Position numbers and translations under genes: made by a program. The notes below the pieces were generated by a model. The model was not told the DNA's origin. It saw only the letters and a program-made list of their open reading frames with translations, and searched no databases. A stretch of DNA of 64,000 bases from a bacterium (GTDB lineage: Bacteria; DUMJ01): positions 31,441 to 95,440 of the forward strand of contig DUMJ01000042.1 of assembly GCA_012839925.1 (NCBI GenBank), in the 5' to 3' direction. Positions 5,622 to 59,613 of the stretch are shown here, piece by piece (positions within the stretch are counted from its first letter, which is position 1; the number at the start of each line of letters is the position of its first letter).

Positions 5622-5766
5622 AAAGATAAAGGGCTGTAAGCGTGAGAGCCTACAGCCCTTTGAATTTCCGCTATGGCTCCCTACGCTGGCATTACCCAGT
5701 TCAGGTTCGGAGGGTCGAAGGGTTAACCCCTTCCTCTCAGCCTCAAATATAAAGGCTCCCCTGCCT
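5622..5766 (-). promoter_or_regulatory. TPP (THI-box) riboswitch with terminator-type expression platform
   Basis: Reverse strand reads GGGGAGC...GCTGAGAGG...ACCCTT(cgaccctcc)GAACCTGAACTGGGTAATGCCAGCGTAGGGA, matching the conserved TPP aptamer core. It is followed by hairpin AAAGGGCTGTA-12nt-TACAGCCCTTT plus a U tract (5628..5661), then RBS AAGGAGG and the thiT ATG. Confidence 0.85.
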
Positions 5767-5835
5767 GGTTATATTATATATTATGTTTGAGGCTATTGCA
5801 ATATTAAAATTTTTTGATAAAATAATATATGTTAC

Positions 5836-5911
5836 GGGTCGTTAGCTCAGTTGGTAGAGCACCTGACTCTTAATCAGGCTGTCGCGGGTTCGAGCCCTGC
5901 ACGACCCACCA
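5836..5911 (+). tRNA. tRNA-Lys (anticodon CTT)
   Basis: Cloverleaf: acceptor GGGTCGT/ACGACCC, anticodon stem CCTGA/TCAGG with loop CTCTTAA, T-loop TTCGAGC, 3' CCA encoded. Confidence 0.9.
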
Positions 5912-5920
5912 CTTAGTAGA

Positions 5921-6006
5921 GCGAGGGTGGCGGAACTGGCAGACGCGCTAGACTTAGGATCTAGTGGTTAACACCCATGCGGGTTCAAATCCCGCTCCTC
6001 GCACCA
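5921..6006 (+). tRNA. tRNA-Leu (anticodon TAG), long variable arm
   Basis: Acceptor GCGAGGG/TCCTCGC, anticodon stem CTAGA/TCTAG loop CTTAGGA, long variable arm, T-loop TTCAAAT, CCA encoded. Confidence 0.9.
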
Positions 6007-6018
6007 GTAGATAGAGAT

Positions 6019-6094
6019 GCGGAAGTGGCTCAGCGGTAGAGCATCTCCTTGCCAAGGAGAGGGTCGCGGGTTCAAATCCCGTCTTCCGCTCCAT
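6019..6094 (+). tRNA. tRNA-Gly (anticodon GCC)
   Basis: Acceptor GCGGAAG/CTTCCGC, anticodon stem TCTCC/GGAGA loop TTGCCAA, T-loop TTCAAAT, CCA encoded. Confidence 0.9.
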
Positions 6095-15499: not shown

Positions 15500-15835
15500 A
15501 TGAAATTAAAAGACCTTGAAGAATTACTGTCTGCTAAAGTATTATATGGAGAGTCCCTGCTCGATAAGGATGTGGATTATTTCTATGCCTCAGACCTTAT
15601 GAGTGATATATTAGCCACAGTTAAGGAACCAGGTGTTTTGATCACCGCTATGGTTCAACCTCAGGTAATGAGGACTATTCAGATGCTGGACCTTATTGGA
15701 GTTATCTTTGTAAATGGTAAGTGTCCGCCAGAAGATACGCTCAGGCTAGCCAGATCTATTGAAATTCCAGTACTGGTTACCAGATGTTCTATGTTTGAGA
15801 CCTGTGGAAAGATATATATGTCTCTGGTAAAATGA
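15500..15835 (+). CDS. DRTGG domain protein (hydrogenase-cluster associated)
   Basis: 111 aa; paralog of 17978..18313 (shared ...TLCGKIY / ...FETCGKIY C-terminus); DRTGG proteins typically accompany [FeFe]-hydrogenase regulatory genes. Confidence 0.6.
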   Translation: MKLKDLEELLSAKVLYGESLLDKDVDYFYASDLMSDILATVKEPGVLITAMVQPQVMRTIQMLDLIGVIFVNGKCPPEDTLRLARSIEIPVLVTRCSMFETCGKIYMSLVK

Positions 15836-16698
15836 GAGAAATCGAAAGAGATTTTTATGCCCTTTTAACACTTCCAGTCTCACTTATAATGAATTCTAAT
15901 ATGCCAAAGATCTTGCCTGATAGAAAGGTCTCACAGGTAAGAGAGATACTGCGGATAAATCAACTGGATGGAGTCGCTATAACCGATGAGGAGAGTAGGC
16001 TGGTGGGTATAGTCACCATGTATGACCTTCTCAAGGCTATAGAGGAAAATAAGAGGGACGTTCCTGTCGAAGAGATAATGACTGAGGATGTTATAACTCT
16101 TTCTCCTCATAATACTTTAGCGGACGCCATAGAGTATTTTCGTGTCTATGGGTATGGAAGATTTCCTGTTGTCGATGAGAATAAGGTTTTCCTTGGTATG
16201 GTAACCCCTTTAGACATAGTTATAAGACTTCCCAGTTTGAAAGAAGAGAAGGAAGAGATTAAAGAGGAGGAAAAGAGCAGGGTAGTAAGGCTTGAATTCT
16301 CAATTGAGGGTGGAGATTTTATTAATGGTGGAGAGGCTTCAAGTAAGATAAAAAGATACCTCCAAAATTTGGGATTACCCAATCATATTATTAGAAGAGT
16401 AGCTGTCGCCAGTTATGAAATGGAGATGAATATGGTAATACATGCCTATAGAGGTAAATTACTTATTGAGATATCTTCTGACAAGATTGTTATAAAGGCT
16501 ATAGATGAGGGACCTGGTATAGAAGACGTGGAGAAAGCCAAACAGCCTGGCTATTCGACCGCCTCTCCAAAAGTGAGAGAGTTAGGATTTGGTGCCGGGA
16601 TGGGACTTCCAAATATAATCTCCTGTTCAGATGAGTTTGATATAAAGAGTGCTGTTGGGGTGGGCACAGAAGTAACATCAATAATATATATAAGGTAG
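15832..16698 (+). CDS. CBS-pair + HATPase_c (RsbW-like serine kinase/anti-sigma-type) regulatory protein
   Basis: N-terminal tandem CBS-like segments, C-terminal GHKL ATPase motifs (IDEGPGI...GFGAGMGLP). Confidence 0.6.
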   Translation: MREIERDFYALLTLPVSLIMNSNMPKILPDRKVSQVREILRINQLDGVAITDEESRLVGIVTMYDLLKAIEENKRDVPVEEIMTEDVITLSPHNTLADAIEYFRVYGYGRFPVVDENKVFLGMVTPLDIVIRLPSLKEEKEEIKEEEKSRVVRLEFSIEGGDFINGGEASSKIKRYLQNLGLPNHIIRRVAVASYEMEMNMVIHAYRGKLLIEISSDKIVIKAIDEGPGIEDVEKAKQPGYSTASPKVRELGFGAGMGLPNIISCSDEFDIKSAVGVGTEVTSIIYIR

Positions 16699-16699
16699 G

Positions 16700-17974
16700 A
16701 TGAATGTTATGAGTATGATAAGGATAAACAAGGACCTGTGTAAGGGGTGTGTAAACTGTATAAGGGTTTGTCCCACGGAAGCTTTGAGGGTAAGATTTGG
16801 TAAGGTGGTTCTTTTAGAGGATAGATGTATAGATTGCGGTGAGTGTATAATAGCCTGTCCTGAACATGCCATAGAAGCAGAGACAGAAGAGGTCAGGGAT
16901 ATGTCTAACTATAGGATGAAGGTTGCTCTTGTAAGTTCTGTCCTTTATGCCCAGTTTGGATTGGATGTATCACCATACCTTATAAGGTCCGCTGTAAAAG
17001 AGATGGGTTTTGACCTTATTATGGATGTGGCTTTTGGCACTGAGGTTTCTACCCTCTATCTCAGAGAGTTAGTAAGAGAAAATCCTGAAAAACTTTATAT
17101 ATCTTCAATGTGTCCTTCAGTTGTTAAATTGATACAGATCAGATTCCCTTCTCTGGTAGAGTGTCTTACCCCTATAGCCTCACCTGAAGAGATATCAGCC
17201 AGATATATAAAAGAAAAGCTTATATCTGAAGGTTACAGGGAAGATGAGGTTGGAGTATTCCTTATTACTCCCTGTACTGCCAAAAGTGCAGATATAAAAG
17301 AGGGGAGAGGCTCTCATTATATAAATGGTACCATATCAGTCTCTGAGGCTTACAAATATATAATAAAGTCTCTTAAGACAGTAAAAGAGGATCGTAGTGG
17401 TCCTATCTTTGGGGAAGGAATAAGCTGGGTGAGAGATGGAGGAGAGGCTAAGAGCCTTGGCATATTAAATTACCTGGTTGTCGATGGGGTGAAGAATGTA
17501 CTGAAAGTTTTGGATGACCTGGAGCTGGGTAAACTGAGAGGAATAAATTTTATTGAGGGAAGAATGTGTGGGGGAGGTTGTGTTGGTGGTCCTTTAAATG
17601 TTCAGAACCCGTATCTTGCCAGGGTAAAGATAAGGATGTTAGAGGATACCTACAAGGAGAGTATAGATAAATCTCTATATGAATATCTGGAAGCTAATGA
17701 CTACTTTGCTGGAGAGGAAATCAGGGTTGATTCTTCTCCATACAAATTAGGTGAAGACGTCAGCAGTGCTATAGAGAGGATGCAGGAACTGGAGGAGATA
17801 CTAAAAACTTTACCCGGTATCGATTGTGGCTCCTGTGGAGCTCCAACCTGCAGGGCTTTGGCAGAGGATATAGTAAGTGGAGATGCCAGAATAACAGACT
17901 GTATCTTTAAGCTTAAAGACAATATTGAAGAGTATGCCAGAAGTTTATTAAAAATGATTAGAGAGGTAAAATAA
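16700..17974 (+). CDS. hydS: [FeFe]-hydrogenase-like protein, putative sensory (HydS-type, group C)
   Basis: Two N-terminal 4Fe-4S motifs (CKGCVNCIRVCP, CIDCGECIIACP). H-cluster motifs are modified: L1 SSMCPS (canonical TSCCP), L2 PCTAK, L3 EGRMCGGGCVGGP. C-terminal CGSCGAPTC-x16-C (Cx2Cx4Cx16C) accessory cluster motif. Confidence 0.75.
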   Translation: MNVMSMIRINKDLCKGCVNCIRVCPTEALRVRFGKVVLLEDRCIDCGECIIACPEHAIEAETEEVRDMSNYRMKVALVSSVLYAQFGLDVSPYLIRSAVKEMGFDLIMDVAFGTEVSTLYLRELVRENPEKLYISSMCPSVVKLIQIRFPSLVECLTPIASPEEISARYIKEKLISEGYREDEVGVFLITPCTAKSADIKEGRGSHYINGTISVSEAYKYIIKSLKTVKEDRSGPIFGEGISWVRDGGEAKSLGILNYLVVDGVKNVLKVLDDLELGKLRGINFIEGRMCGGGCVGGPLNVQNPYLARVKIRMLEDTYKESIDKSLYEYLEANDYFAGEEIRVDSSPYKLGEDVSSAIERMQELEEILKTLPGIDCGSCGAPTCRALAEDIVSGDARITDCIFKLKDNIEEYARSLLKMIREVK

Positions 17975-17977
17975 TAT

Positions 17978-18313
17978 ATGACGTTTAGAGAATTACTTGG
18001 GAATTTGCCATTAGAAAACCTGGGGGATGATTTTGATCTGGATAAGTCCCCCAGGGGTGGGTATGTGGGAGACCTGCTCAGTAACGTAATGAGATTTGCC
18101 AAAGAGGGCAATGTCTGGATCACTGTTCAAACTCATATAAATGTTATAGCGGTTGCTACTCTGGTTGGCATAAGTGGGATAATATTCCCCTGTGGAGTAG
18201 AACCTCCAGAAGAGACTATAAAGAAAGCCAGGGAGGAACATATAGCTCTCCTTACCACAAAGTTAGATGCCTTTACACTCTGTGGTAAAATATATGAGTT
18301 AGGTATTAGATGA
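17978..18313 (+). CDS. DRTGG domain protein (second paralog)
   Basis: 111 aa, similar length and C-terminal motif to 15500..15835. Confidence 0.6.
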   Translation: MTFRELLGNLPLENLGDDFDLDKSPRGGYVGDLLSNVMRFAKEGNVWITVQTHINVIAVATLVGISGIIFPCGVEPPEETIKKAREEHIALLTTKLDAFTLCGKIYELGIR

Positions 18314-19059
18314 GATTTGCTTTGGACCTCCATATACATACTCTTTTATCTCCCTGTGCGGGGATAGAGATGATACCTGTAAATATAGTGAGGAGAGTGC
18401 AGGAAGTAGGAATTGATATAATGGCTGTTACTGACCATAATGCAGTGGGTAATGCTGAAAGTGTGATAAAGTCCGCATTAAAGTATGCACCGGGTCTTGG
18501 GGTCTTTCCAGGGATTGAGGTCACCTCTAAAGAAGAGGTTCATATATTGGGGATTCTACCCTCGGTGGAATCTGCCAGGAAACTTGAATCTATGATACAC
18601 TCCCACCTGGTTAATCCTCCGGTAAAAGATTCTCTCGCTGAACAATTGATAGTTGATGAAGATGCAAACTTTATTAGATATGAAGAACATTTTCTTATGG
18701 GGGCGACAGACTTTTCTGTAGAAGAAGTATCAGATCTGATTCACTCTTTTGATGGGATAGTTATACCTGCTCACATTGACAGAGAGTCCTTTGGTCTTAT
18801 ATATAATCTTGGGTTATTTCCTCCCGATCTTGAGGTAGATGCAGTAGAGGTTTCCAAATTTGCTAAAGAAAGCACTTTAGTAAACCTTAGACGTCTTATC
18901 CCTCCGGATGTTCCGGTATTATTTTCCAGTGATGCCCATTTCCTGGATGATATAGTTCCTCCCAGAAGTTTCTTAGAATTGATGGATAAGAGTTTTGATT
19001 CATTAAAAGAAGCATTAAAAAATTATGGATATGTCAGGAATCATAAAACAGGAGGTTAA
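18310..19059 (+). CDS. PHP-domain metal-dependent phosphoesterase
   Basis: N-terminal LDLHIHTLLS...AVTDHN PHP signature; 249 aa. Confidence 0.7.
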   Translation: MRFALDLHIHTLLSPCAGIEMIPVNIVRRVQEVGIDIMAVTDHNAVGNAESVIKSALKYAPGLGVFPGIEVTSKEEVHILGILPSVESARKLESMIHSHLVNPPVKDSLAEQLIVDEDANFIRYEEHFLMGATDFSVEEVSDLIHSFDGIVIPAHIDRESFGLIYNLGLFPPDLEVDAVEVSKFAKESTLVNLRRLIPPDVPVLFSSDAHFLDDIVPPRSFLELMDKSFDSLKEALKNYGYVRNHKTGG

Positions 19060-19061
19060 AG

Positions 19062-19523
19062 ATGGATTCGACTCAGATAAGGCAGTTAAATGAAATAATA
19101 TCCAGATGGACAGGTAAACCTGGAGCCTTGATGCCAGTTCTTCAGGAGATTCAGGAGAAGTTTGGATATATCCCTGAAGATGCGATGAAAGAAGTATCTG
19201 CAAAATTGAATATTCCATTACCTGAGGTATACGGTGTGGTGACCTTCTATCATTTCTTCTCACTGAAACCCAAGGGGAAATATAAGATTCAAGTATGTGA
19301 AGGGACGGCATGCTATGTAAAGGGTGCAAAAAGGGTGTTAGAGAAGTTTGAAGAGGTTTTAGGTATAAAAGTTGGAGACGTCACTCCTGATGGCAAGTTT
19401 TCTATAGAGAGTGTAAGGTGTATAGGAGCGTGCAGCCACGCACCAGCTGTTATGATAAATGACCAGGTGTATGGTCGTATGAATTCGGAAAAAGTATCAC
19501 AGTTGATAAAGACACTCAAATGA
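19062..19523 (+). CDS. hydC: NuoE-like [2Fe-2S] subunit (HydC-type) of NADH-linked bifurcating module
   Basis: 153 aa; thioredoxin-like 2Fe-2S cysteines CEGTACYVKG...CIGACSHAP. Confidence 0.85.
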   Translation: MDSTQIRQLNEIISRWTGKPGALMPVLQEIQEKFGYIPEDAMKEVSAKLNIPLPEVYGVVTFYHFFSLKPKGKYKIQVCEGTACYVKGAKRVLEKFEEVLGIKVGDVTPDGKFSIESVRCIGACSHAPAVMINDQVYGRMNSEKVSQLIKTLK

Positions 19524-20062
19524 TGGAAGAACTTTCCCTGCATATTCTGGATATAGCTGAGAATGGTATAAATGCCGGGGCGAACTGTGTAGAGATAGAA
19601 GTGGATATTGAGAAAAGTAAGGACCTTATGACTATAAAGGTCAGGGATAACGGTAAGGGGATGGACTCTGAAATTCTGGATAAGATAAGAGACCCTTTTT
19701 TCACAACCAGAACTACCCGTAAGGTGGGGCTGGGAGTATCCTTTTTAGACGAACTGGCAGAGCTTACTGGGGGAAGACTTGATATAGATTCTACGCCGGG
19801 TATAGGGACCACTGTCAGGTTGGAGCTTCCTATCAGTCATCCAGATAGACCACCTTTAGGGGATATCATCTCCACTCTTATAACTTTATCTATGATCAAT
19901 ACTGAAGTAAGGATAACTTATGTTGAAAGGAGAGATGATAAGGTCTGGTCCTTTGACTCTGATCAGATTAAGGATTTTCTGACTGACTACTCCTTATTGG
20001 GGAAAATAAAAGAAATATTATATAATAGTTATAAAGATTTTATTGGAGGTGAACTAATTTGA
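19520..20062 (+). CDS. Histidine-kinase-like ATPase (HATPase_c only; HydD-type)
   Basis: 180 aa; GHKL motifs RDNGKGMD, GLGVSF; this gene sits between nuoE- and nuoF-like genes in [FeFe]-hydrogenase operons of thermophilic Firmicutes/Thermotogae. Confidence 0.65.
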   Translation: MMEELSLHILDIAENGINAGANCVEIEVDIEKSKDLMTIKVRDNGKGMDSEILDKIRDPFFTTRTTRKVGLGVSFLDELAELTGGRLDIDSTPGIGTTVRLELPISHPDRPPLGDIISTLITLSMINTEVRITYVERRDDKVWSFDSDQIKDFLTDYSLLGKIKEILYNSYKDFIGGELI

Positions 20063-20430
20063 AATCTTTAGAAGATTTAAAAAGAATAAGAGAGCAGGCG
20101 CAGGCTCAGATAAAACTTAGAACTCAGGAAGCTAACACAAAGATAATAGTTGGGATGGGAACCTGTGGTATAGCCGCAGGTGCAAGAGAGACCCTTATGG
20201 CTATCCTGGATGAGTTATCAAAGAGAAATATTCAGGATGTGGTGGTTACTCAGACTGGATGTGTAGGATTATGCGAGTATGAACCTCTGGTAAACGTTGT
20301 AAAGCCAGGACAACCAAAAATTACCTATATGAAAGTAACTCCAGAGAGAGCAAGACAGATAGTTGCAAGTCACATAGTAAATGACCAGATTATAAATGAA
20401 TGGGTATTGAGTACAGAAGAAGGAGCATAG
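20059..20430 (+). CDS. Thioredoxin-like [2Fe-2S] ferredoxin
   Basis: 123 aa, GMGTCGIAAG...GCVGLCEYEP cysteine pattern. Confidence 0.7.
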   Translation: MKSLEDLKRIREQAQAQIKLRTQEANTKIIVGMGTCGIAAGARETLMAILDELSKRNIQDVVVTQTGCVGLCEYEPLVNVVKPGQPKITYMKVTPERARQIVASHIVNDQIINEWVLSTEEGA

Positions 20431-20431
20431 T

Positions 20432-22243
20432 ATGGCTATAATAAGGACGAATGTTCTGATATGTGCTGGTAGTGCCTGTGTATCATCAAGGGCATACGAT
20501 TTTAAAACCGCACTTTTAGAGGCATTAGAAGAGGCTGGGATAAAAGAAGAAGTAAATGTTGTTGATACTGGATGTATAGGAACCTGTGATTTGGGTCCGG
20601 TAGCTATTGTATATCCAGATGGAATCTTTTATGTCCATCTTAAACCAGAAGATGCCAAGGTTATAGTTAATGAGCATCTTCTAAAAGGCAGGGTGGTTAA
20701 TAGGCTCCTTTATCAGCAACCTATGACAAAAGAGGTATTTCCATCACTTTCAGAGATAGATTTTATAGTAAGACAGAAAAGAATAGTTTTAAGAAATATG
20801 GGGGTTATAGACCCGGAGAGTATAGAAGAGTATATAGCTAAAGAGGGATACCAGGCTCTGGCTAAAGCTCTTACTATGAGTCCTGAAGATGTTATAGACA
20901 CTGTTAAAAAGTCAGGACTGAGAGGAAGAGGTGGGGCAGGTTTCCCTACCGGATTAAAATGGGAGCTTACCCGTAAAGCGACCGGTAATCCCAAATATGT
21001 AATATGCAATGGTGATGAAGGAGACCCAGGTGCATTTATGGATAGAAGTGTACTGGAAGGTGACCCTCATAGCATTATTGAAGGGATGATGATCGCTGGT
21101 TATGCGGTAGGGGCCAGTAAAGGATTCTTCTATGTGAGAGCTGAGTATCCGCTGGCTATAAAGAGGATTGAGAATGCTCTTGAACAGGCAAGGAGTTATG
21201 GGCTTATTGGAGAGAATATACTTGGGACAGATTTTTCTTTTGATATAGAGCTTAGAAGAGGGTCAGGTGCTTTTGTATGTGGAGAAGAAACAGCTCTCAT
21301 CGCCTCCATTGAAGGTGGAAGAGGAGAGCCACGTCCACGTCCACCTTATCCAGCTAACAGAGGATTATGGGATAGTCCAACAGTGATAAATAATGTGGAG
21401 ACACTGGCTAATATTTCTCCCATAATCTTAAATGGTGCTGAATGGTTTAGCAGTACAGGTACAGAGAAGAGTAAGGGGACAAAGGTTTTTGCCCTTGCGG
21501 GTAAGGTCAATAATACCGGTCTTATTGAAGTCCCATTTGGAACTACACTTGGAGAGATTATCTTTGATGTTGGGGGTGGGATACCAGGTGGGAAAAAATT
21601 TAAGGCAGCCCAGACAGGTGGACCATCTGGTGGCTGTATACCTGCAGAGTATCTAGATCTTCCTATAGATTATGAGTCTTTAAAACAGATAGGAGCTATA
21701 GTAGGTTCAGGTGGTCTTATCATTATGGATGAGGATACCTGTATGGTTGATGTGGCAAGATTCTTCCTGGAATTTACTCAGAGTGAGTCCTGTGGTAAAT
21801 GTCCACCATGTCGTGTAGGGACAAGAAAGATGCTGGATATCCTGGAGAGAATAGTAAATGGTGAAGGGGAAGAGGGAGATATAGAAAGACTGATAGAGTT
21901 AGGTGAAGAGATAAGAAGAGATTCATTGTGTGGTCTCGGTCAGACCGCTCCAAATCCCGTGCTGAGTACTATAAGATTCTTCAGGGATGAGTATGAGGCT
22001 CATATTAGAGAGAAGAGATGTCCTGCTAAATCTTGTCGGGCTCTTATCGCATATCAGGTAATACCGGATAAGTGCAGAGGATGTGGTATATGTGCCAGGG
22101 TTTGTCCGGTAGGTGCAGCTCAGGGTAAACCCAGAGAGATTTATCATATAGACACGGGATTATGTATAAAGTGTGGAGACTGCTTTGCCAAGTGTCCTTT
22201 TGGAGCGATAGAAAAGGCAGATCTTGTTTTAGAAAAAGTTTAA
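20432..22243 (+). CDS. hydB: NuoF-like NADH-binding flavoprotein (HydB-type) with N-terminal 2Fe-2S and C-terminal 2x[4Fe-4S] domains
   Basis: 603 aa; GLRGRGGAGFPTGLKWE FMN/NADH motif, ESCGKCPPCRVGT 4Fe-4S, C-terminal CRGCGICARVCP...CIKCGDCFAKCP. Confidence 0.9.
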   Translation: MAIIRTNVLICAGSACVSSRAYDFKTALLEALEEAGIKEEVNVVDTGCIGTCDLGPVAIVYPDGIFYVHLKPEDAKVIVNEHLLKGRVVNRLLYQQPMTKEVFPSLSEIDFIVRQKRIVLRNMGVIDPESIEEYIAKEGYQALAKALTMSPEDVIDTVKKSGLRGRGGAGFPTGLKWELTRKATGNPKYVICNGDEGDPGAFMDRSVLEGDPHSIIEGMMIAGYAVGASKGFFYVRAEYPLAIKRIENALEQARSYGLIGENILGTDFSFDIELRRGSGAFVCGEETALIASIEGGRGEPRPRPPYPANRGLWDSPTVINNVETLANISPIILNGAEWFSSTGTEKSKGTKVFALAGKVNNTGLIEVPFGTTLGEIIFDVGGGIPGGKKFKAAQTGGPSGGCIPAEYLDLPIDYESLKQIGAIVGSGGLIIMDEDTCMVDVARFFLEFTQSESCGKCPPCRVGTRKMLDILERIVNGEGEEGDIERLIELGEEIRRDSLCGLGQTAPNPVLSTIRFFRDEYEAHIREKRCPAKSCRALIAYQVIPDKCRGCGICARVCPVGAAQGKPREIYHIDTGLCIKCGDCFAKCPFGAIEKADLVLEKV

Positions 22244-22258
22244 GAAAGGAGTAGACCT

Positions 22259-23185
22259 ATGGATCAGAAACTGTATGTATCTGCTCCACCACATATCAGG
22301 TCTGATACAGATGCAAAATTTCTCATGCGCCAGGTGATAATAGCTCTATTAGCTCCAACTGTAGCGGGTGTGATATTTTTTGGCGGCAGGGCTCTCCTGA
22401 TTTTAGTTATATCTGTGTTGAGTTCAATTTTTTGGCAGAGATTGATGATATACATCAAGAAAGAAAAGAGACCCTTAGATGGCAGTGAAGTGGTAACAGG
22501 ACTTCTCATTGGTCTTAATCTCTCCCCACTGGTGCCGTGGTGGATACCTGTAGTGGGAACATTTATAGCTATAGTGCTGGCTAAAGAACTTTTTGGCGGT
22601 CTGGGTTTCAACATCTTTAATCCGGCACTTATAGCCAGAGCATTCCTTTTAGCCTCCTGGCCTATGGAAATGACAACCTGGGCTGCTCCATTTACTGGGG
22701 TAACTCAGGCTACACCTTTAGCACTTTTAAAGTTACAACATGTATCTACCCCTTATATCAGTCTTTTCCTGGGTAATAGAGGAGGGTGTATTGGAGAGAC
22801 CTCTGTTCTGGCACTACTTATTGGTGCTGCTTATCTTTTTTATAAAGGGGTTATTGATTGGAGGACACCGATTCCATATATCCTTACTGTGGGTGTCTTA
22901 TCCCTTATTTTTGGACAGGACCCGCTGTTTCACATGATGTCAGGAGGACTTGTCCTTGGGGCATTTTTTATGGCTACTGATTATACAACCACCCCTGTTA
23001 CCAAGTCTGGAAGGATAATCTTCGGTATAGGGTGCGGAGTTATAACTATACTTATAAGGCTCTTTGGAGGATATCCTGAGGGTGTATCTTACAGTATTCT
23101 CTTTATGAATGCTATGACACCCTTAATAGACCGCTGGACTATCCCTAAGCCTTTTGGCTATAGGGTTGAAAGGAGGAGAGTATGA
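22259..23185 (+). CDS. rnfD: RnfD/NqrB-family membrane subunit
   Basis: 308 aa polytopic; GGLGFNIFNPALIARAF motif and TDYTTTPVT flavinylation-type motif near C-terminus. Confidence 0.8.
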   Translation: MDQKLYVSAPPHIRSDTDAKFLMRQVIIALLAPTVAGVIFFGGRALLILVISVLSSIFWQRLMIYIKKEKRPLDGSEVVTGLLIGLNLSPLVPWWIPVVGTFIAIVLAKELFGGLGFNIFNPALIARAFLLASWPMEMTTWAAPFTGVTQATPLALLKLQHVSTPYISLFLGNRGGCIGETSVLALLIGAAYLFYKGVIDWRTPIPYILTVGVLSLIFGQDPLFHMMSGGLVLGAFFMATDYTTTPVTKSGRIIFGIGCGVITILIRLFGGYPEGVSYSILFMNAMTPLIDRWTIPKPFGYRVERRRV

Positions 23186-23772
23186 AGTTTCTTCGTCCTC
23201 TGATAAATGGAATATGGAAAGAAAATCCCATACTTGTCCTTATGATAGGACTCTGTCCGACACTGGCTGTCTCAACTGCGGCTATAAATGGTATATATAT
23301 GGGATTAGCAGCCACCTTTGTTTTGGCAGGGTCAAACCTGATAATATCCCTTATTAGAAAATGGGTTCCAGATCAGGTCCGTATACCTATCTTTATCACC
23401 ATAATAGCCGCTTTTGTTACTGTAGTGGATATGGTTATGCATGCCTATGTTCCTGAGATGTATAAAATACTGGGGATTTTTATTCCATTAATCGTTGTTA
23501 ACTGTATAATACTTGGCAGGGCAGAAGCCTTTGCCTACCAGAATGGACCTATTGAATCTTTAGGGGATGGGATAGGTATGGGGATAGGTTTTACTCTTAT
23601 TTTACTGATTCTTGGTAGTATAAGAGAACTGTTAGGTAATGGAACAATTTTTGGATTTCAGATTATGCCAGTAACTTATAAACCTGTATTACTAATGATA
23701 CTTCCTCCTGGTGCCTTTCTAACTATTGGTTTCTTACAGGCTCTACAGAGATATAGAGGAGGTAAAGAATAA
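23182..23772 (+). CDS. rnfE: RnfE/NqrD-family membrane subunit
   Basis: 196 aa; LVLMIGLCPTLAVST...; 4-bp overlap with rnfD. Confidence 0.8.
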   Translation: MKFLRPLINGIWKENPILVLMIGLCPTLAVSTAAINGIYMGLAATFVLAGSNLIISLIRKWVPDQVRIPIFITIIAAFVTVVDMVMHAYVPEMYKILGIFIPLIVVNCIILGRAEAFAYQNGPIESLGDGIGMGIGFTLILLILGSIRELLGNGTIFGFQIMPVTYKPVLLMILPPGAFLTIGFLQALQRYRGGKE

Positions 23773-24356
23773 TGTTTTCTCATCTTCTTCTCTTATTTAT
23801 AGGGGCGCTACTGGTAAATAATATACTACTTATAAGATTTATAGCTTTATGCGCTTTCTTTGGTGTATCAAACTCGATGAGTACATCGATAGGTATGGGT
23901 ATGGCAGTGACATTTGTTATGGTCCTCACATCATCTGTAACCTGGATTCTCTGGAATTTTGTTCTTGTACCTCTTCATCTTGAATATCTCCAGATATCCG
24001 TATTTATTCTTACCATCGCTGCTTTAGTACAGTTTGTTGAATTATTCCTTAAGAAGAATAGCCCTTCGTTATATAGGGCTATGGGTATATATCTACCTCT
24101 AATTACCACAAACTGTGCTATACTTGCAGTAGCTTTCATACATGTCTCAAGTAATTTTAATTTTATAGAGACGATTGTATATACTATAGGTGTGAGTGGG
24201 GGTTATACCCTTGCCATCGTTATGTTTGCAGGTATAAGGGAGAGATTGGCTTCTGCACCTGTACCCAGGGCATTCCAGGGTTACCCTCTTGCCTTTATAA
24301 CTGCAAGTCTTATGTCTCTGGCTTTTTTGGGATTTAAGGGGTTGTTTGGACTATAG
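23772..24356 (+). CDS. rnfA: RnfA/NqrE-family membrane subunit
   Basis: 194 aa; LLVNNILLIRFIALCAFFGVS..., start overlaps rnfE stop. Confidence 0.8.
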   Translation: MFSHLLLLFIGALLVNNILLIRFIALCAFFGVSNSMSTSIGMGMAVTFVMVLTSSVTWILWNFVLVPLHLEYLQISVFILTIAALVQFVELFLKKNSPSLYRAMGIYLPLITTNCAILAVAFIHVSSNFNFIETIVYTIGVSGGYTLAIVMFAGIRERLASAPVPRAFQGYPLAFITASLMSLAFLGFKGLFGL

Positions 24357-24373: not shown

Positions 24374-24610
24374 ATGGCTGAGAATAGTGATTGGAGATTA
24401 GCAGATTTTATTGGGATAAAAGCCCTGGAGAACGGGGTTACGATAATCGGTCTTACCAGAGGAAAGGAAACCAGAATCAGTCATACAGAGAAACTCGATG
24501 CCGGGCAGGTTATGTTTGCACAGTTTACTGAGAATGTTTCAGCTATGAAGATTGAAGGAAAGGCTGAGATATACACCAAGTTTGGGAAGATAACTAGCGG
24601 AGATATCTAA
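24374..24610 (+). CDS. Small hypothetical protein (78 aa)
   Basis: Strong RBS AAGGAGGAG 7 nt before ATG; 17 nt after rnfA stop, 15 nt before glmS; no recognisable motifs. Confidence 0.4.
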   Translation: MAENSDWRLADFIGIKALENGVTIIGLTRGKETRISHTEKLDAGQVMFAQFTENVSAMKIEGKAEIYTKFGKITSGDI

Positions 24611-56406: not shown

Positions 56407-57618
56407 ATGGACCGATATGTGTTAATTGATCCTGAAGAACTTCGGAAATCCCTTCAGTTAGCCTGCAAATGGCTTGTTGAAATAGCTCAAGTTAAAACTG
56501 AAGGGCTTGCTATTGAGAAGAACTCAAAAAAACATCTCCATCAAACTTGGAAGGGATCTATACGAGGAGAGTATAGTGTAGCTAAGAATGAATGGGATTT
56601 CTTCTGCCCTGTTTGGCACACAGGACAAGCCATAAAAGCACTTGTTGCAGCTTATAAGGTTTTGGGAGAAAACAGACTCCTTCAAGCGGCAATGTTTTCA
56701 GCTGATTTCTTAGGTAGGGAACGTGTCTCAGAAAAAGGGAATGAGCATCACGGACTTATATTTGCATTTGAGGATAGGGGAGATATGGTTAATACATCGG
56801 CAATTTTAGAGTGTTTAGATGGACTGATAAGCCTAAGTGAGGTTTCTGGAGATATTTCCTACTGGGGATGGGTTGTTGATGCTCTTAAATGGGTTGCAAA
56901 GAGAGCTTATATTACGGATGAAGGTCTATTTAGAGATTGTTTTTCAATAAAGACCTGGCAATTCGAGCCTCCGCCCTGGAGAAATCCACAGGGGTGGCCT
57001 GGCAGACCACTTCTAGATGATGGAGTGTTTCTTAAAGCGTATCATTATACAGGTAACCCTGAGTTTCGCCGAATCTTCTATGAAACCGCTAATCGACTTC
57101 TTAAAGAAGAGGAACCGCCAGGCAATTGGATCCGATTTACCCCTTGTAATGTTGAGACTGGTAGTATACACCCTCGACATGCCTATTGGTGGGGAAGACC
57201 AATGCTTATGGCCTATAGGGATAGTGGTGAAGCAAAGTATCTTGAGTGTGCTATAAGGTCTGGGCAGTGGTATATAGATGCACAGAGAGTAGATGGCGGA
57301 CTTTTCCGCGGAACATATCGGAATTTTAAGACAGATTCTTTTGGACATGCTACAAGTGGGATTGCCTGCGCTTCAATTTTGTGGCATGAACTCTGGGAGA
57401 TAACTGGTGATGATCGTTGGCTTAAGTCGATAGAGAAGGCTATGGCATATTGTATGAAAATGCAGTTCCGTAACACTAAGGACTCCAACTTACAAGGAGC
57501 TATTCTGGAAAAGGTCCTCCCTCCTGATGGTACGGACAGTTCTCCTTACCATATAAGAGATCTCGGAACGATATTCTTTATTCAAGCAGCATCAAGGATT
57601 TTATATGATACGATTTAA
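56407..57618 (+). CDS. Hypothetical protein, possibly (alpha/alpha)6-toroid glycoside hydrolase/epimerase-like
   Basis: 403 aa, no signal peptide; W/aromatic-rich repeats consistent with six-hairpin fold; assignment tentative. Confidence 0.3.
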   Translation: MDRYVLIDPEELRKSLQLACKWLVEIAQVKTEGLAIEKNSKKHLHQTWKGSIRGEYSVAKNEWDFFCPVWHTGQAIKALVAAYKVLGENRLLQAAMFSADFLGRERVSEKGNEHHGLIFAFEDRGDMVNTSAILECLDGLISLSEVSGDISYWGWVVDALKWVAKRAYITDEGLFRDCFSIKTWQFEPPPWRNPQGWPGRPLLDDGVFLKAYHYTGNPEFRRIFYETANRLLKEEEPPGNWIRFTPCNVETGSIHPRHAYWWGRPMLMAYRDSGEAKYLECAIRSGQWYIDAQRVDGGLFRGTYRNFKTDSFGHATSGIACASILWHELWEITGDDRWLKSIEKAMAYCMKMQFRNTKDSNLQGAILEKVLPPDGTDSSPYHIRDLGTIFFIQAASRILYDTI

Positions 57619-57681: not shown

Positions 57682-59613
57682 ATGATATCTCAGAGTAACA
57701 TTAGAGAAGATAATTTGGCTTCTGGTAAAGATGTGGGTGGTAAAAAAGAACTATCGCAAATTGTAGAAAAAAATTATTGTTTTTATAATATACAGGTATG
57801 CGGGACTCTTGACGGTTTCAATACAGTTTATTATTTGGACACTTATGGTGGTCATAAAAGAGAAGAAGTTAAATTCGAACCTAATGTAGCTCTTATAATA
57901 GAGAATATTGGAGACACTGATGTAATAGCACCTAGAATTATAATAAATGGGAAAAGAAACTGGTACTCAGTAGATGATATTCTAAATGAGATAATAAATG
58001 ATTCTATGAATGAAGAAGAAAAAACCTTAGCAATTTTTCGTTTTATAAGTGATATCAGTATCAATGCACATGATAATAACTTAAGAGTCAGTCCTCCTTA
58101 TCCAGATGAGGAATCAAATCCTTCAAAGAACCAGTTTAAGGAACGTGCTAATCCAGTAAAAGCTGTAAACTGTTTTTATTGTAGCGGATGTTCACTATCG
58201 GCAGCTAACTTCGTAATATTATGTCGGCATGCAGGTTTGGAAGCACGTGCTATTTGGATGTCAGAAAGATATATATATCATTGTGTAGCTGAGGTTAAGT
58301 ATAATGGTAAATATCACCTCTTTGATCCAGAGCAAAATGCCTTCTTCCTAGATCTAGGCGATACTACTATTGCTTCTTATGAAGAAGTTTATAGATGTCC
58401 TGAAATCAAAATGAGAACGCATATGTGTGGGTTCGCTCAAAAAGAGGAAAATTATCCTGGAGAATCTTATTGTAGTATATATCCCCCTTATTCTATGCCT
58501 GTTGAAGATTGGGTTACCACTATGGATATTATTCTAAGACCCGGTGAATCTTTTATCAAAAGATGGGATAATGTGGGTAAGTTTGGTAGGGTCTTTAACT
58601 CACGGAATAATGGTCAGAGACCTCCATATCGGCTCGCTAATGGGAAATTTGTTTATAAGCCTGATCTCTCTAGAAATATTTATCGAAAAGGTATGGTATT
58701 TGAAAGAAATGTAAAGTCCCTCGAAGATGATGGAGTGAAACCTAACTTACATATGGATACCATAGAGCAACCTTCTATTATTATGTATAAAGTTACTTCT
58801 CCCTATCCTATCGTGGGAGGAATAGTAGGCGGTATTTTTTATAGGAAAAATCAGGATGACGTGATAAAGGTTTATTTTTCGTCCGGAGATCAAGATTGGG
58901 TTGAAATTTGGTCAGTTAAAGAAGCCAGCCTACCAGGGAAAAACCTTGGGGTATTCGAAGCATATGAAGACATATCATACCAGAATGTAGGTGGTAGTAG
59001 AGGGTTGGATAGTAAATTTGAAGTATCCCTAATTGACCCTTTAAATACAGCCCCAAAATATGAATATTATATTAAATATGAATTCCACAGTAATATTTCC
59101 CCTTATGATGTGGGGATAGAGAATATATATTTAGAAACCATTGTCCAAATGAGTAATACCTCACTTCCTGCACTTTCAGTAGGAGAAAATAAAATAGAGT
59201 ATACAGATAAAACTAAGGGATCTCGTCATGTGAAAATCACTCATGTATGGCACGAGAGTTCAGAATCGATTCCTCCAGAGCCACCCTCTGCCCCAGTTTC
59301 CCCTAGAGATAATCAAGAGATTTCCTTAGTATCTCTTAAATATCTTGAATGGGAACCTTCTGCTGATCCTGACGGGAAGGGGATACTTGATTATCATCTC
59401 CAGGTAAGTCTTTCCCCAAATTTTTTAGCTCCAGTGTCACCGAATTTTGATCGCCTTACCCGAGATGAGCAACCTAAATGGAAAATCCCTGAGGGATGGC
59501 TAGTAGGAGGAAGGACATATTATTGGAGAGTAAAGGCAAGAAATCAATGGGGAGCTTGGAGTAATTGGAGTAAGCCATGGAGTTTTACTGTTATAAAAGA
59601 GGAATATAGATGA
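57682..59613 (+). CDS. Transglutaminase-like cysteine-protease-fold protein with C-terminal fibronectin type III domain
   Basis: CSGCSLSAANFVILCRHAGLEARAIW and HCVAEVKYNGKYHLFDP (Cys-His-Asp TGase core); C-terminal ...YYWRVKARNQWGAWSNWS FN3-like; no signal peptide. Confidence 0.55.
   Translation: MISQSNIREDNLASGKDVGGKKELSQIVEKNYCFYNIQVCGTLDGFNTVYYLDTYGGHKREEVKFEPNVALIIENIGDTDVIAPRIIINGKRNWYSVDDILNEIINDSMNEEEKTLAIFRFISDISINAHDNNLRVSPPYPDEESNPSKNQFKERANPVKAVNCFYCSGCSLSAANFVILCRHAGLEARAIWMSERYIYHCVAEVKYNGKYHLFDPEQNAFFLDLGDTTIASYEEVYRCPEIKMRTHMCGFAQKEENYPGESYCSIYPPYSMPVEDWVTTMDIILRPGESFIKRWDNVGKFGRVFNSRNNGQRPPYRLANGKFVYKPDLSRNIYRKGMVFERNVKSLEDDGVKPNLHMDTIEQPSIIMYKVTSPYPIVGGIVGGIFYRKNQDDVIKVYFSSGDQDWVEIWSVKEASLPGKNLGVFEAYEDISYQNVGGSRGLDSKFEVSLIDPLNTAPKYEYYIKYEFHSNISPYDVGIENIYLETIVQMSNTSLPALSVGENKIEYTDKTKGSRHVKITHVWHESSESIPPEPPSAPVSPRDNQEISLVSLKYLEWEPSADPDGKGILDYHLQVSLSPNFLAPVSPNFDRLTRDEQPKWKIPEGWLVGGRTYYWRVKARNQWGAWSNWSKPWSFTVIKEEYR

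Follow-up and report, generated by a model that had tools for sequence, protein, structure and literature searches.

Why does a gene for a hydrogenase-like sensor stand at the head of an operon in which no catalytic hydrogenase is encoded? The question is raised by a 64,000-nucleotide stretch of bacterial DNA (contig DUMJ01000042.1 of assembly GCA_012839925.1, positions 31,441 to 95,440; hereafter the window), where a five-gene cassette built around an [FeFe]-hydrogenase-like protein (15500 to 19059, plus strand) is followed by genes for NuoE-like, HATPase_c, 2Fe-2S ferredoxin, NuoF-like, RnfD, RnfE, and RnfA proteins. A sequence-only reading had described this operon as NuoEF-Rnf without hydA, which is what was found, and had proposed that the cassette is an H2 or redox sensor wired to a non-hydrogenase energy-conserving complex. 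The explanation we favor, with moderate confidence, is that a group D sensor cassette is joined to the core (BfuBC) of a bifurcating NiFe hydrogenase whose genes are split between two loci, directs its output to that core, and is co-expressed with rnfDEA.

A hydrogenase-like protein of the group D type

The central cassette gene (16700 to 17974, plus strand) encodes a 424-amino-acid protein whose architecture is that of group D, or M2e, [FeFe] hydrogenases of the TamHydS type, in agreement with every published criterion. Land et al. (PMC8163306) characterized this group by two N-terminal clusters, a C-terminal Cx2Cx4Cx16C motif, the lack of a PAS domain, the loss of C299 together with the rest of the proton pathway, and a conserved change of M353 to Ser or Thr. 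In the window protein, a Fer4 dicluster (residues 6 to 59) carries two [4Fe-4S] motifs whose cysteines are invariant in the alignment of relatives, Fe_hyd_lg_C spans residues 78 to 298 (E = 5e-31), and the PF04060 "FeS" domain lies at residues 371 to 403 (E = 1e-14), where the Cx2Cx4Cx16C motif announced by the earlier reading is formed by C376, C379, C384, and C401, invariant in 86 relatives. No PAS domain was found by Pfam at E ≤ 0.01, and the chain stops 23 residues past C401. Homologs begin at M4, so that translation probably starts at 16709.

Alignment with HMMER to the hydrogenase CpI, whose residue numbers are used for C299, C300, M353, C355, K358, M497, C499, and C503, bore out the non-canonical motifs SSMCPS, PCTAK, and RMCGGGCVGGP. 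In L1, FTSCCPG of CpI corresponds to ISSMCPS, with the relay cysteine C299 replaced by Met137 and the ligand C300 retained; the alignment revealed no proton-transfer cysteine at this position. In L2, VMPCTSK corresponds to ITPCTAK, where M353 is Thr190 and both C355 and K358 are kept. In L3, FIEGRMCGGGCVGG of the window protein is aligned to FIEVMACHGGCVNG of CpI, pairing EGRMCGGGC with EVMACHGGC, so that C499 and C503 are retained and M497 becomes Arg. The four H-cluster ligands (C138, C192, C290, and C294) are invariant in the 86 relatives. Among M2e proteins, 56 have Thr and 29 have Ser in place of M353, and the C299 position is Ala in 62, Ser in 11, and other residues in the rest, never Cys. 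Since this position varies so freely, the methionine found there, which is confined to the window clade (5 of 86), is no sign of decay.

Comparison with the wider family fits this assignment. A homolog search returned more than 7,600 proteins, of which 16 clusters from metagenomic bacteria are 70 to 96% identical to the window protein and the remainder, mostly from Bacillota, at most 46%. Identity is 38 to 43% to other M2e proteins versus 20 to 24% to group A HydA, and in a neighbor-joining tree that set 84 M2e proteins against 29 HydA sequences of group A, taken from the fetched loci, the window protein and four clade relatives form a separate deep branch on the M2e side, apart from group A HydA. 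Placement among the catalytic group A enzymes was thus not seen, and the protein is a non-prototypical [FeFe] hydrogenase, as the HydS-like label had implied. The counterpart that had been named for it, HydS of Thermotoga maritima, is of a different type, being a group C protein with a PAS domain. An AlphaFold2 model (pLDDT, the predicted local confidence, of 80) has [FeFe] hydrogenases as its top folds (TM score of about 0.6, 17 to 22% identity), and no group C or D structure is among the 50 fold matches listed.

Five loci from independent assemblies (L001 to L004 and L092) make up, with the window, a clade of six. Ratios of nonsynonymous to synonymous substitution rates (dN/dS) were computed against two clade relatives, with dS saturated, and range from 0.015 to 0.15 for all genes of the cluster and from 0.05 to 0.08 for the M2e protein. 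H-cluster binding and reactivity with H2 remain putative properties of the window protein, and a sensing role is suggested by the biochemistry of TamHydS, which interconverts H+ and H2 reversibly at low rates (PMC8163306).

The cassette, the BfuBC core, and a NiFe module upstream

The genes around the M2e gene were all found where the earlier reading had placed them: two DRTGG paralogs, a CBS-HATPase of RsbW-like type, and a PHP protein. All lie on the plus strand. The first gene (15500 to 15835) encodes a single-domain DRTGG protein of 111 amino acids, just under the Pfam cutoff (E = 5e-5, 23.5 bits), with a dN/dS of 0.04. The second (15832 to 16698; 288 amino acids) joins a CBS pair (E = 2.4e-25) to a SpoIIAB/RsbW-type ATPase (HATPase_c_2, E = 1.4e-9) that matches the NCBIfam spIIAB anti-sigma F model under its cutoff (E = 1.7e-13) and anti-sigma F in the PDB (E = 2e-4); its predicted role is that of a serine kinase carrying a module for sensing adenine nucleotides. 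Behind the M2e gene follow a second 111-amino-acid DRTGG protein (17978 to 18313; E = 3e-6, 27.4 bits), 37% identical to the first over 86 amino acids (E = 9e-19), and a 249-amino-acid PHP-family phosphoesterase (18310 to 19059; E = 1.1e-5, 26.3 bits against a cutoff of 26.4), with an N-terminal HIH motif, that is the putative phosphatase of the cassette.

Comparison was made with 80 loci among the matches listed by a profile search of GTDB genomes with the M2e alignment, mostly from Bacillota, with some from Atribacterota, Spirochaetes, Armatimonadota, and Ignavibacteria; none of the matches listed belongs to the window clade. Most of these keep the order DRTGG, ATPase, M2e, DRTGG, PHP, with both DRTGG genes and the PHP gene in equivalent positions. 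Fusion of CBS to the ATPase was seen only in the window clade and in one other lineage (L085); most comparators have the ATPase alone, at 125 to 175 amino acids. The cassette often runs on into NuoE-like, HATPase_c, 2Fe-2S ferredoxin, and NuoF-like genes, a synteny shared by many Bacillota loci and by single loci of Armatimonadota and Ignavibacteria. Spirochaete and Atribacterota loci hold part or all of the cassette without HydCB, and at some loci the cassette stands alone. The cassette itself is therefore ordinary for group D. To call it a typical H2-sensing signaling set, as the sequence-only reading did, is an overstatement, since group D was still without a defined function in a survey of 2024 (PMC11216029) and no description of a DRTGG/PHP cassette with a hydrogenase was found in the literature searched.

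The "NuoE" and "NuoF" genes had been described as NuoEF components; judged by their closest matches, they are HydC and HydB, the core (BfuBC) of bifurcating enzymes belonging to the Bfu family (PMC9304861), and not a generic NADH dehydrogenase. HydC (19062 to 19523, plus strand; 153 amino acids) is a NuoE-like [2Fe-2S] subunit (2Fe-2S_thioredx, E = 1.5e-56) whose top PDB matches are HydC of Thermoanaerobacter kivui, Acetobacterium woodii, and the Acetomicrobium mobile NiFe enzyme (E = 1e-46 to 1e-49). NuoF-like HydB (20432 to 22243, plus strand; 603 amino acids) carries an N-terminal [2Fe-2S] domain, a flavin mononucleotide (FMN)/NADH site, NADH_4Fe-4S, and two C-terminal [4Fe-4S] clusters; it matches over its full length HydB of the A. 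woodii FeFe-HydABC (7Q4V_B, 881 bits) and subunit B of the A. mobile NiFe-HydABCSL (7T2R_B, 880 bits) and is 55 to 66% identical to comparator HydB. Between the two lie a small HATPase_c protein in the place of "HisK" (19520 to 20062, plus strand; 180 amino acids; E = 1e-19), found at the same position in comparators, and a HydD-like thioredoxin-like [2Fe-2S] ferredoxin (20059 to 20430, plus strand; 123 amino acids; NCBIfam 2Fe-2S ferredoxin, E = 7.5e-9), which is the most conserved gene of the cluster (91 to 94% identity, dN/dS of 0.015 to 0.04). The A. mobile operon is likewise reported to include HisK and HydD genes (PMC8880783).

What follows the NuoF-like gene differs among the comparators with visible 3' sequence: an FeFe HydA of about 580 amino acids at 27 loci, formate dehydrogenase with FocA at 3 (L008, L009, and L011), a BfuA-like polyferredoxin and then NiFe small and large subunits at 1 (L079, Ignavibacteria), a canonical rnfCDGE operon at 1 (L066), and nothing related at 4. 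From this variety, the conserved unit is the cassette plus the NuoEF-like pair, and the catalytic partner is exchangeable. Because the M2e cassette travels with BfuBC whether the partner is FeFe, NiFe, formate dehydrogenase, Rnf, or nothing, the core, rather than an H2-producing subunit or a promoter, stands out as the probable regulated target. The idea of a sensor wired to a non-hydrogenase complex thus finds parallels elsewhere, where the cassette adjoins formate dehydrogenase (L008, L009, and L011) or Rnf (L066 and L085).

Several comparator loci are worth recording in their own right. At L008 (15710 to 19336), L009, and L011, the formate dehydrogenase is split by an in-frame stop, presumably selenocysteine, and a FocA-type channel for formate is encoded after it; here a cassette of the sensor-type hydrogenase kind seems to be connected to a formate enzyme. 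The HydA at L007 (15674 to 17419) and 26 other comparator group A HydA proteins read TSCSPGW instead of TSCCP, which by gapless alignment puts Ser at CpI position 300, and the motif is identical in A. woodii HydA1 (7Q4V_A). L085 (5258 to 13732), from another lineage, has DRTGG, CBS-ATPase, M2e-like, and DRTGG-like genes directly 5' of a complete rnfCDGEAB, without HydBC and without PHP; its RnfD, about 59% identical, is among the nearest relatives of the window RnfD outside the clade. Ferredoxin, NuoE, NuoF, and BfuA-like genes stand immediately 5' of canonical rnfCDGEAB at L102 (3993 to 12205) and L105 (3948 to 13675); Bfu and Rnf genes are thus neighbors in unrelated lineages from metagenomes as well.

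A catalytic partner for the window HydBC was sought in about 84 kb of DNA, made up of the window and about 20 kb of flanks. The flanks come from biogas-fermenter contigs found by exact-protein look-ups for genes near both window ends and share 100% identity with the window across 12 to 13 kb (12,992 bp for the upstream contig, L090). The host is a deep, uncultured, saccharolytic lineage of biogas reactors, and its valyl-tRNA synthetase is 100% identical to proteins of metagenome-assembled genomes that carry the label "Dictyoglomi bacterium" or just "bacterium" but only about 54% identical to that of any other named lineage.

The upstream flank holds a NiFe hydrogenase set on the minus strand (L090, 1 to 5177, or about 3.0 to 8.2 kb 5' of window base 1). 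Its HydA-like, small-subunit, and large-subunit genes lie 3.0 to 6.7 kb before the window, about 20 kb from hydCB and on the opposite strand. The 552-amino-acid NuoG-like HydA has the NiFe hydrogenase subunit A 7T2R_A as its best PDB match (E = 2e-79); the small subunit is a 180-amino-acid Oxidored_q6 protein; and the 475-amino-acid large subunit has 7T2R_D as its best match (E = 3e-185), with RICGICPVSH and DPCLSCSTH intact. A 116-amino-acid open reading frame (ORF) and then hypA, hypB, and hypF complete the set. Homology identifies these genes as the HydA-S-L half of a bifurcating NiFe hydrogenase like that of A. mobile, and no hydB or hydC was found beside it. The window operon in turn has no NuoG-like BfuA gene, for which the 552-amino-acid protein is the sole candidate. 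The NiFe HydA-like/small/large module is thus most likely the catalytic partner of the window HydBC, a combination that is contiguous at L079, in another phylum. The NiFe set having no HydBC of its own nearby, the statement that the complex lacks a catalytic hydrogenase holds for the operon and is probably wrong for the enzyme: no hydA was found just outside the window in the same operon, and the hydrogenase outside it is of the NiFe type.

The Pfam scans, which covered the 46 largest window ORFs, and those of the flanks showed no hydEFG, no group A hydA, and no further Rnf genes. The check for maturases proposed with the earlier reading therefore came back negative for this DNA, and it bears on a rather unlikely alternative, in which the M2e protein has lost its H2 chemistry and serves either as an iron-sulfur redox sensor, for instance of the ferredoxin pool, or as an accessory in electron transfer, with the hydrogenase-like fold as a relic. 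Besides the missing maturases, this would accommodate the methionine peculiar to the clade, where others have mostly Ala or Ser, the Arg at M497, the NiFe enzyme as the only catalytic hydrogenase seen, and the cassettes that other organisms have beside modules for formate dehydrogenase or Rnf. A relic, however, would not be expected to keep the four cluster cysteines, K358, and a Thr at M353 under a dN/dS of 0.05 to 0.08; the C299 position never holds Cys in any M2e protein; and the maturase search reached about 84 kb of the genome only.

An rnfD-rnfE-rnfA set behind hydB

Of special interest is the set of three Rnf genes that begins 15 nucleotides past the hydB stop. RnfD (22259 to 23185, plus strand; 308 amino acids; NQR2_RnfD_RnfE, E = 9e-114) matches Clostridium tetanomorphum RnfD (7ZC6_D, E = 2e-100) and retains the flavin-attachment motif, GVTxATPL, as well as the SxxPHIR arm at its N terminus. 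RnfE (23182 to 23772, plus strand; 196 amino acids; Rnf-Nqr, E = 4e-70) has two cysteines at half-helix positions, in LCPT and NCIILG, and RnfA (23772 to 24356, plus strand; 194 amino acids; Rnf-Nqr, E = 1e-54) has cysteines in LCAFFG and NCAILA. The rnfD/rnfE overlap of 4 nucleotides leaves no space for rnfG, rnfE and rnfA overlap by 1 nucleotide, and no rnfB follows rnfA. The earlier label "Rnf components" was right for RnfD, RnfE, and RnfA, although they do not make a complete Rnf.

The missing subunits were sought with hidden Markov models (HMMs) of RnfC, RnfG, and RnfB, built from 44 to 72 sequences and run on every open stretch of at least 40 amino acids in the window and flanks, and in the clade loci. 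RnfG was not found at E ≤ 1; RnfC was not found, the only RnfC-like match being HydB (E = 2e-18); and RnfB was not found, the only RnfB-like match being the M2e protein (E = 4.6e-18). Among the matches listed from metagenome contigs, where L092 is the only clade member, about 78 RnfD loci outside the window clade keep rnfC next to rnfD wherever the sequence reaches, and rnfG lies beside rnfD in all but three; apart from these three, the order is the canonical C-D-G-E-A-B as far as each sequence extends. Those three (L157, 8605 to 12986; L160; and L166), from one unrelated lineage, read rnfC-rnfD-rnfE-rnfA-rnfB with rnfD and rnfE overlapping and an RnfG undetectable by HMM, so RnfG-less Rnf operons do occur elsewhere.

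Two other explanations were rejected. An assembly chimera at the hydB-rnfD junction does not account for six loci from independent assemblies that share it, with M2e proteins 70 to 78% identical and a gene order through rnfDEA that is the same in the five clade loci. Decaying remnants would not have intact ORFs, conserved cofactor motifs, and dN/dS values of 0.03 to 0.08 for the three genes together (0.03 to 0.05 for rnfD). The RnfDEA-only set is the real oddity of this region, conserved in the clade and still unexplained, and nothing relevant to a NuoEF-RnfDEA cluster was found in the literature searched.

The tight junction raises the possibility that HydC-HydD-HydB docks on RnfD, RnfE, and RnfA as a new membrane-bound complex with no hydrogenase subunit, HydB replacing RnfC and the M2e cassette regulating this ion-pumping module for NADH and ferredoxin. 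Membrane-bound Mbh-Bfu and Nuo-Bfu complexes have been proposed before, and an Rnf type has not (PMC9304861). The near-continuous spacing from hydB to rnfA, kept in six loci with dS saturated and with rnfDEA under selection, the failure to find rnfC, rnfG, or rnfB in about 84 kb, HydB as the only RnfC-like protein, and the regular company of rnfC and rnfG at other RnfD loci are all what such a complex would leave behind. It is nevertheless unlikely. In the solved Rnf, electrons pass from RnfAE through RnfG-FMN to RnfD (PMC9588780), and the carrier RnfG is missing at the locus; the window RnfD retains the N-terminal arm that in that structure is buried inside RnfC (PMC9588780), suggesting a real RnfC somewhere. 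HydB itself shows neither an extra domain nor divergence from soluble HydB (880 bits over its full length, 55 to 66% identity to comparators), an orphan NiFe module in need of HydBC lies nearby, and no reaction is known for a Bfu core that lacks a BfuA-type branch to a third substrate.

The RnfB-like match of the M2e protein invites a further alternative, namely, that it is a working low-rate hydrogenase subunit, either substituting for HydA on HydBC or docking on RnfA/E through its FdI-like domain, so that H2 is linked directly to NAD+ and/or ion translocation. The C-terminal domain matches the RnfB FdI domain (NCBIfam rnfB models; 9ERI_B), which is the proposed electron donor to RnfAE (PMC9588780), the M2e protein is the only RnfB-like protein of the region, its four H-cluster cysteines and K358 are retained, and TamHydS does turn over H+ and H2, if slowly (PMC8163306). 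We regard this as improbable. The same architecture, FdI-like domain included, occurs in dozens of loci with a true HydA and without Rnf, so these features are not specific to an rnfDEA context; the protein lacks the NuoG-like N-terminal domain by which HydA/BfuA binds HydBC and has no RnfB-like transmembrane anchor; two regulatory-type genes separate it from hydC; and Met stands in place of the proton relay. Most doubtful of all is a combination of the two ideas, an RnfDEA core with HydBC as its RnfC and the M2e protein as its RnfB on RnfA/E via the FdI-like domain, wiring H2 or H2 sensing to an ion pump without RnfG; a role for M2e as RnfB is made unlikely by the many loci at which an M2e protein of identical architecture has no Rnf genes nearby.

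The surroundings of the operon were also surveyed. From 6119 to 26455 on the plus strand, genes for trigger factor, clpP, clpX, lon, valS, folC, the cassette, hydCB, rnfDEA, a TRAP-like ORF, and glmS follow one another with gaps of 0 to 20 nucleotides or overlaps, and since no consensus terminators were found in this run, the limits of the transcription units cannot be read from the sequence. The TRAP-like ORF (24374 to 24610, plus strand; 78 amino acids), between rnfA and glmS, is 87 to 90% conserved in the clade, and its counterparts in L001 to L003 match the Pfam family TrpBP, that of the trp RNA-binding attenuation protein (TRAP). This protein is familiar chiefly from Bacillus, and its presence in a deep lineage at the rnfA-glmS position is odd. 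Elsewhere in the window, a thiamine pyrophosphate riboswitch (5661 to 5772, minus strand; 72 bits) lies 5' of a YuaJ/ThiT thiamine transporter and thiamine pyrophosphokinase, and three tRNA genes occupy 5836 to 6090 (plus strand). Three plus-strand ORFs (664 to 1821, 56407 to 57618, and 57682 to 59613; 385, 403, and 643 amino acids) match no Pfam family at E ≤ 1e-6; the 403- and 643-amino-acid ORFs lie within a sugar-utilization neighborhood (ROK, SBP_bac_5, URO-D-like, and AXE1).

A working model and its known relatives

The favored explanation, a group D cassette acting on the BC core of a split NiFe enzyme, can be put as a sequence of steps. The M2e protein would bind an H-cluster and turn H2 over slowly, the lack of a proton relay suiting it to slow turnover and the role of a reporter. 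Through its accessory clusters, the C-terminal one above all, it may report H2 pressure or the redox state of ferredoxin. The kinase-like ATPase and the PHP phosphoesterase could then pass this on to the DRTGG proteins by changing their phosphorylation or their partners, a phospho-relay to which the CBS energy-charge module on the ATPase would add an input in the window lineage. The output would fall on the BfuBC core and not on DNA, because none of the cassette genes encodes a DNA-binding protein and the cassette accompanies BfuBC no matter which catalytic partner is present. The window HydBC and the upstream NiFe HydA-like/small/large proteins would form a split bifurcating hydrogenase of the NiFe-HydABCSL type. 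Rnf and bifurcating hydrogenases share the NADH and ferredoxin pools, which would explain co-expression of rnfDEA with hydB, and the RnfC, RnfG, and RnfB partners may be encoded elsewhere or replaced.

Several observations weigh against this model. The NiFe module is a separate transcription unit on the other strand, and the HydEFG maturases needed by any H-cluster were not found in the window or its flanks. The literature searched holds no experiment in which a group D protein senses H2. The hydB-rnfD gap of only 15 nucleotides is conserved across the clade and fits a physical link between HydBC and RnfDEA at least as well as it fits co-regulation. Finally, scans for promoters and terminators yielded as many hits as in shuffled sequence and so marked no operon limits.

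In vitro work on group D covers a single member, and no signaling target is known for the group. The window lineage offers two natural experiments. One is an FeFe-type "sensor" placed before an apparent bifurcating enzyme of the NiFe kind. The other is an RnfDEA set under purifying selection without RnfC, RnfG, and RnfB, which, if no partners exist elsewhere, challenges the current model of the electron path through Rnf. What is unusual in this region is the apparent pairing of an FeFe sensor with a NiFe enzyme, together with the conserved RnfDEA-only set.

Among known proteins, the closest in architecture is TamHydS of Thermoanaerobacter mathranii (PMC8163306), which shares the two [4Fe-4S] clusters, the H-domain, the Cx2Cx4Cx16C motif, the absence of PAS and of the relay Cys, and a hydroxyl residue at M353, and whose gene also lies 5' of hydC/hydB-type genes and beside a histidine-kinase-like ATPase. 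The likeness is one of architecture: the identity of about 40% is to the sampled M2e relatives, and the window clade is a separate deep branch. In the window protein, Met instead of Ala or Ser occupies the C299 position and M497 is replaced by Arg, and its locus differs from that of TamHydS in the CBS pair on the kinase and in a downstream enzyme that lacks an FeFe HydA and runs into rnfDEA. Group C (M2f) proteins, such as TmHydS of T. maritima and HfsB/HydS of Thermoanaerobacterium and Ruminococcus, resemble it in their non-canonical H-domain pocket, N-terminal clusters, and four-Cys motif, and for them, too, H2 sensing tied to partner proteins has been proposed. Their partners, however, are a Ser/Thr protein kinase and phosphatases (PMC5707799) rather than DRTGG, RsbW-like ATPase, and PHP proteins, and they carry a C-terminal PAS domain where the window protein has none.

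The enzyme side has its nearest relative in the NiFe-HydABCSL of A. mobile (7T2R/7T30; PMC8880783), which is among the best or equal-best solved matches of HydB, HydC, the upstream HydA, and the NiFe large subunit, with HisK-like and HydD-like genes in its operon. There, five subunits share one operon; here, hydC and hydB stand behind an M2e cassette and the hydA-like, small-subunit, and large-subunit genes lie on the opposite strand at a distance of about 20 kb; the complex is putative, and of the 552-amino-acid HydA-like protein, only residues 4 to 297 align with the 692-amino-acid A. mobile HydA. The FeFe-HydABC operons with an upstream M2e cassette (27 loci) show the same nine genes in the same sequence, DRTGG through hydB, but their tenth gene, hydA (about 580 amino acids, TSCSPGW type), is replaced in the window by rnfD-rnfE-rnfA. 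These three genes, in turn, share the RnfD motifs and the paired cysteines of RnfE and RnfA with the RnfABCDGE complexes of C. tetanomorphum (7ZC6) and A. woodii (9ERI), from which the window locus differs in that rnfC, rnfG, and rnfB were found neither beside them nor in the approximately 84 kb around, and in that their immediate neighbor is the hydB of a bifurcating core.

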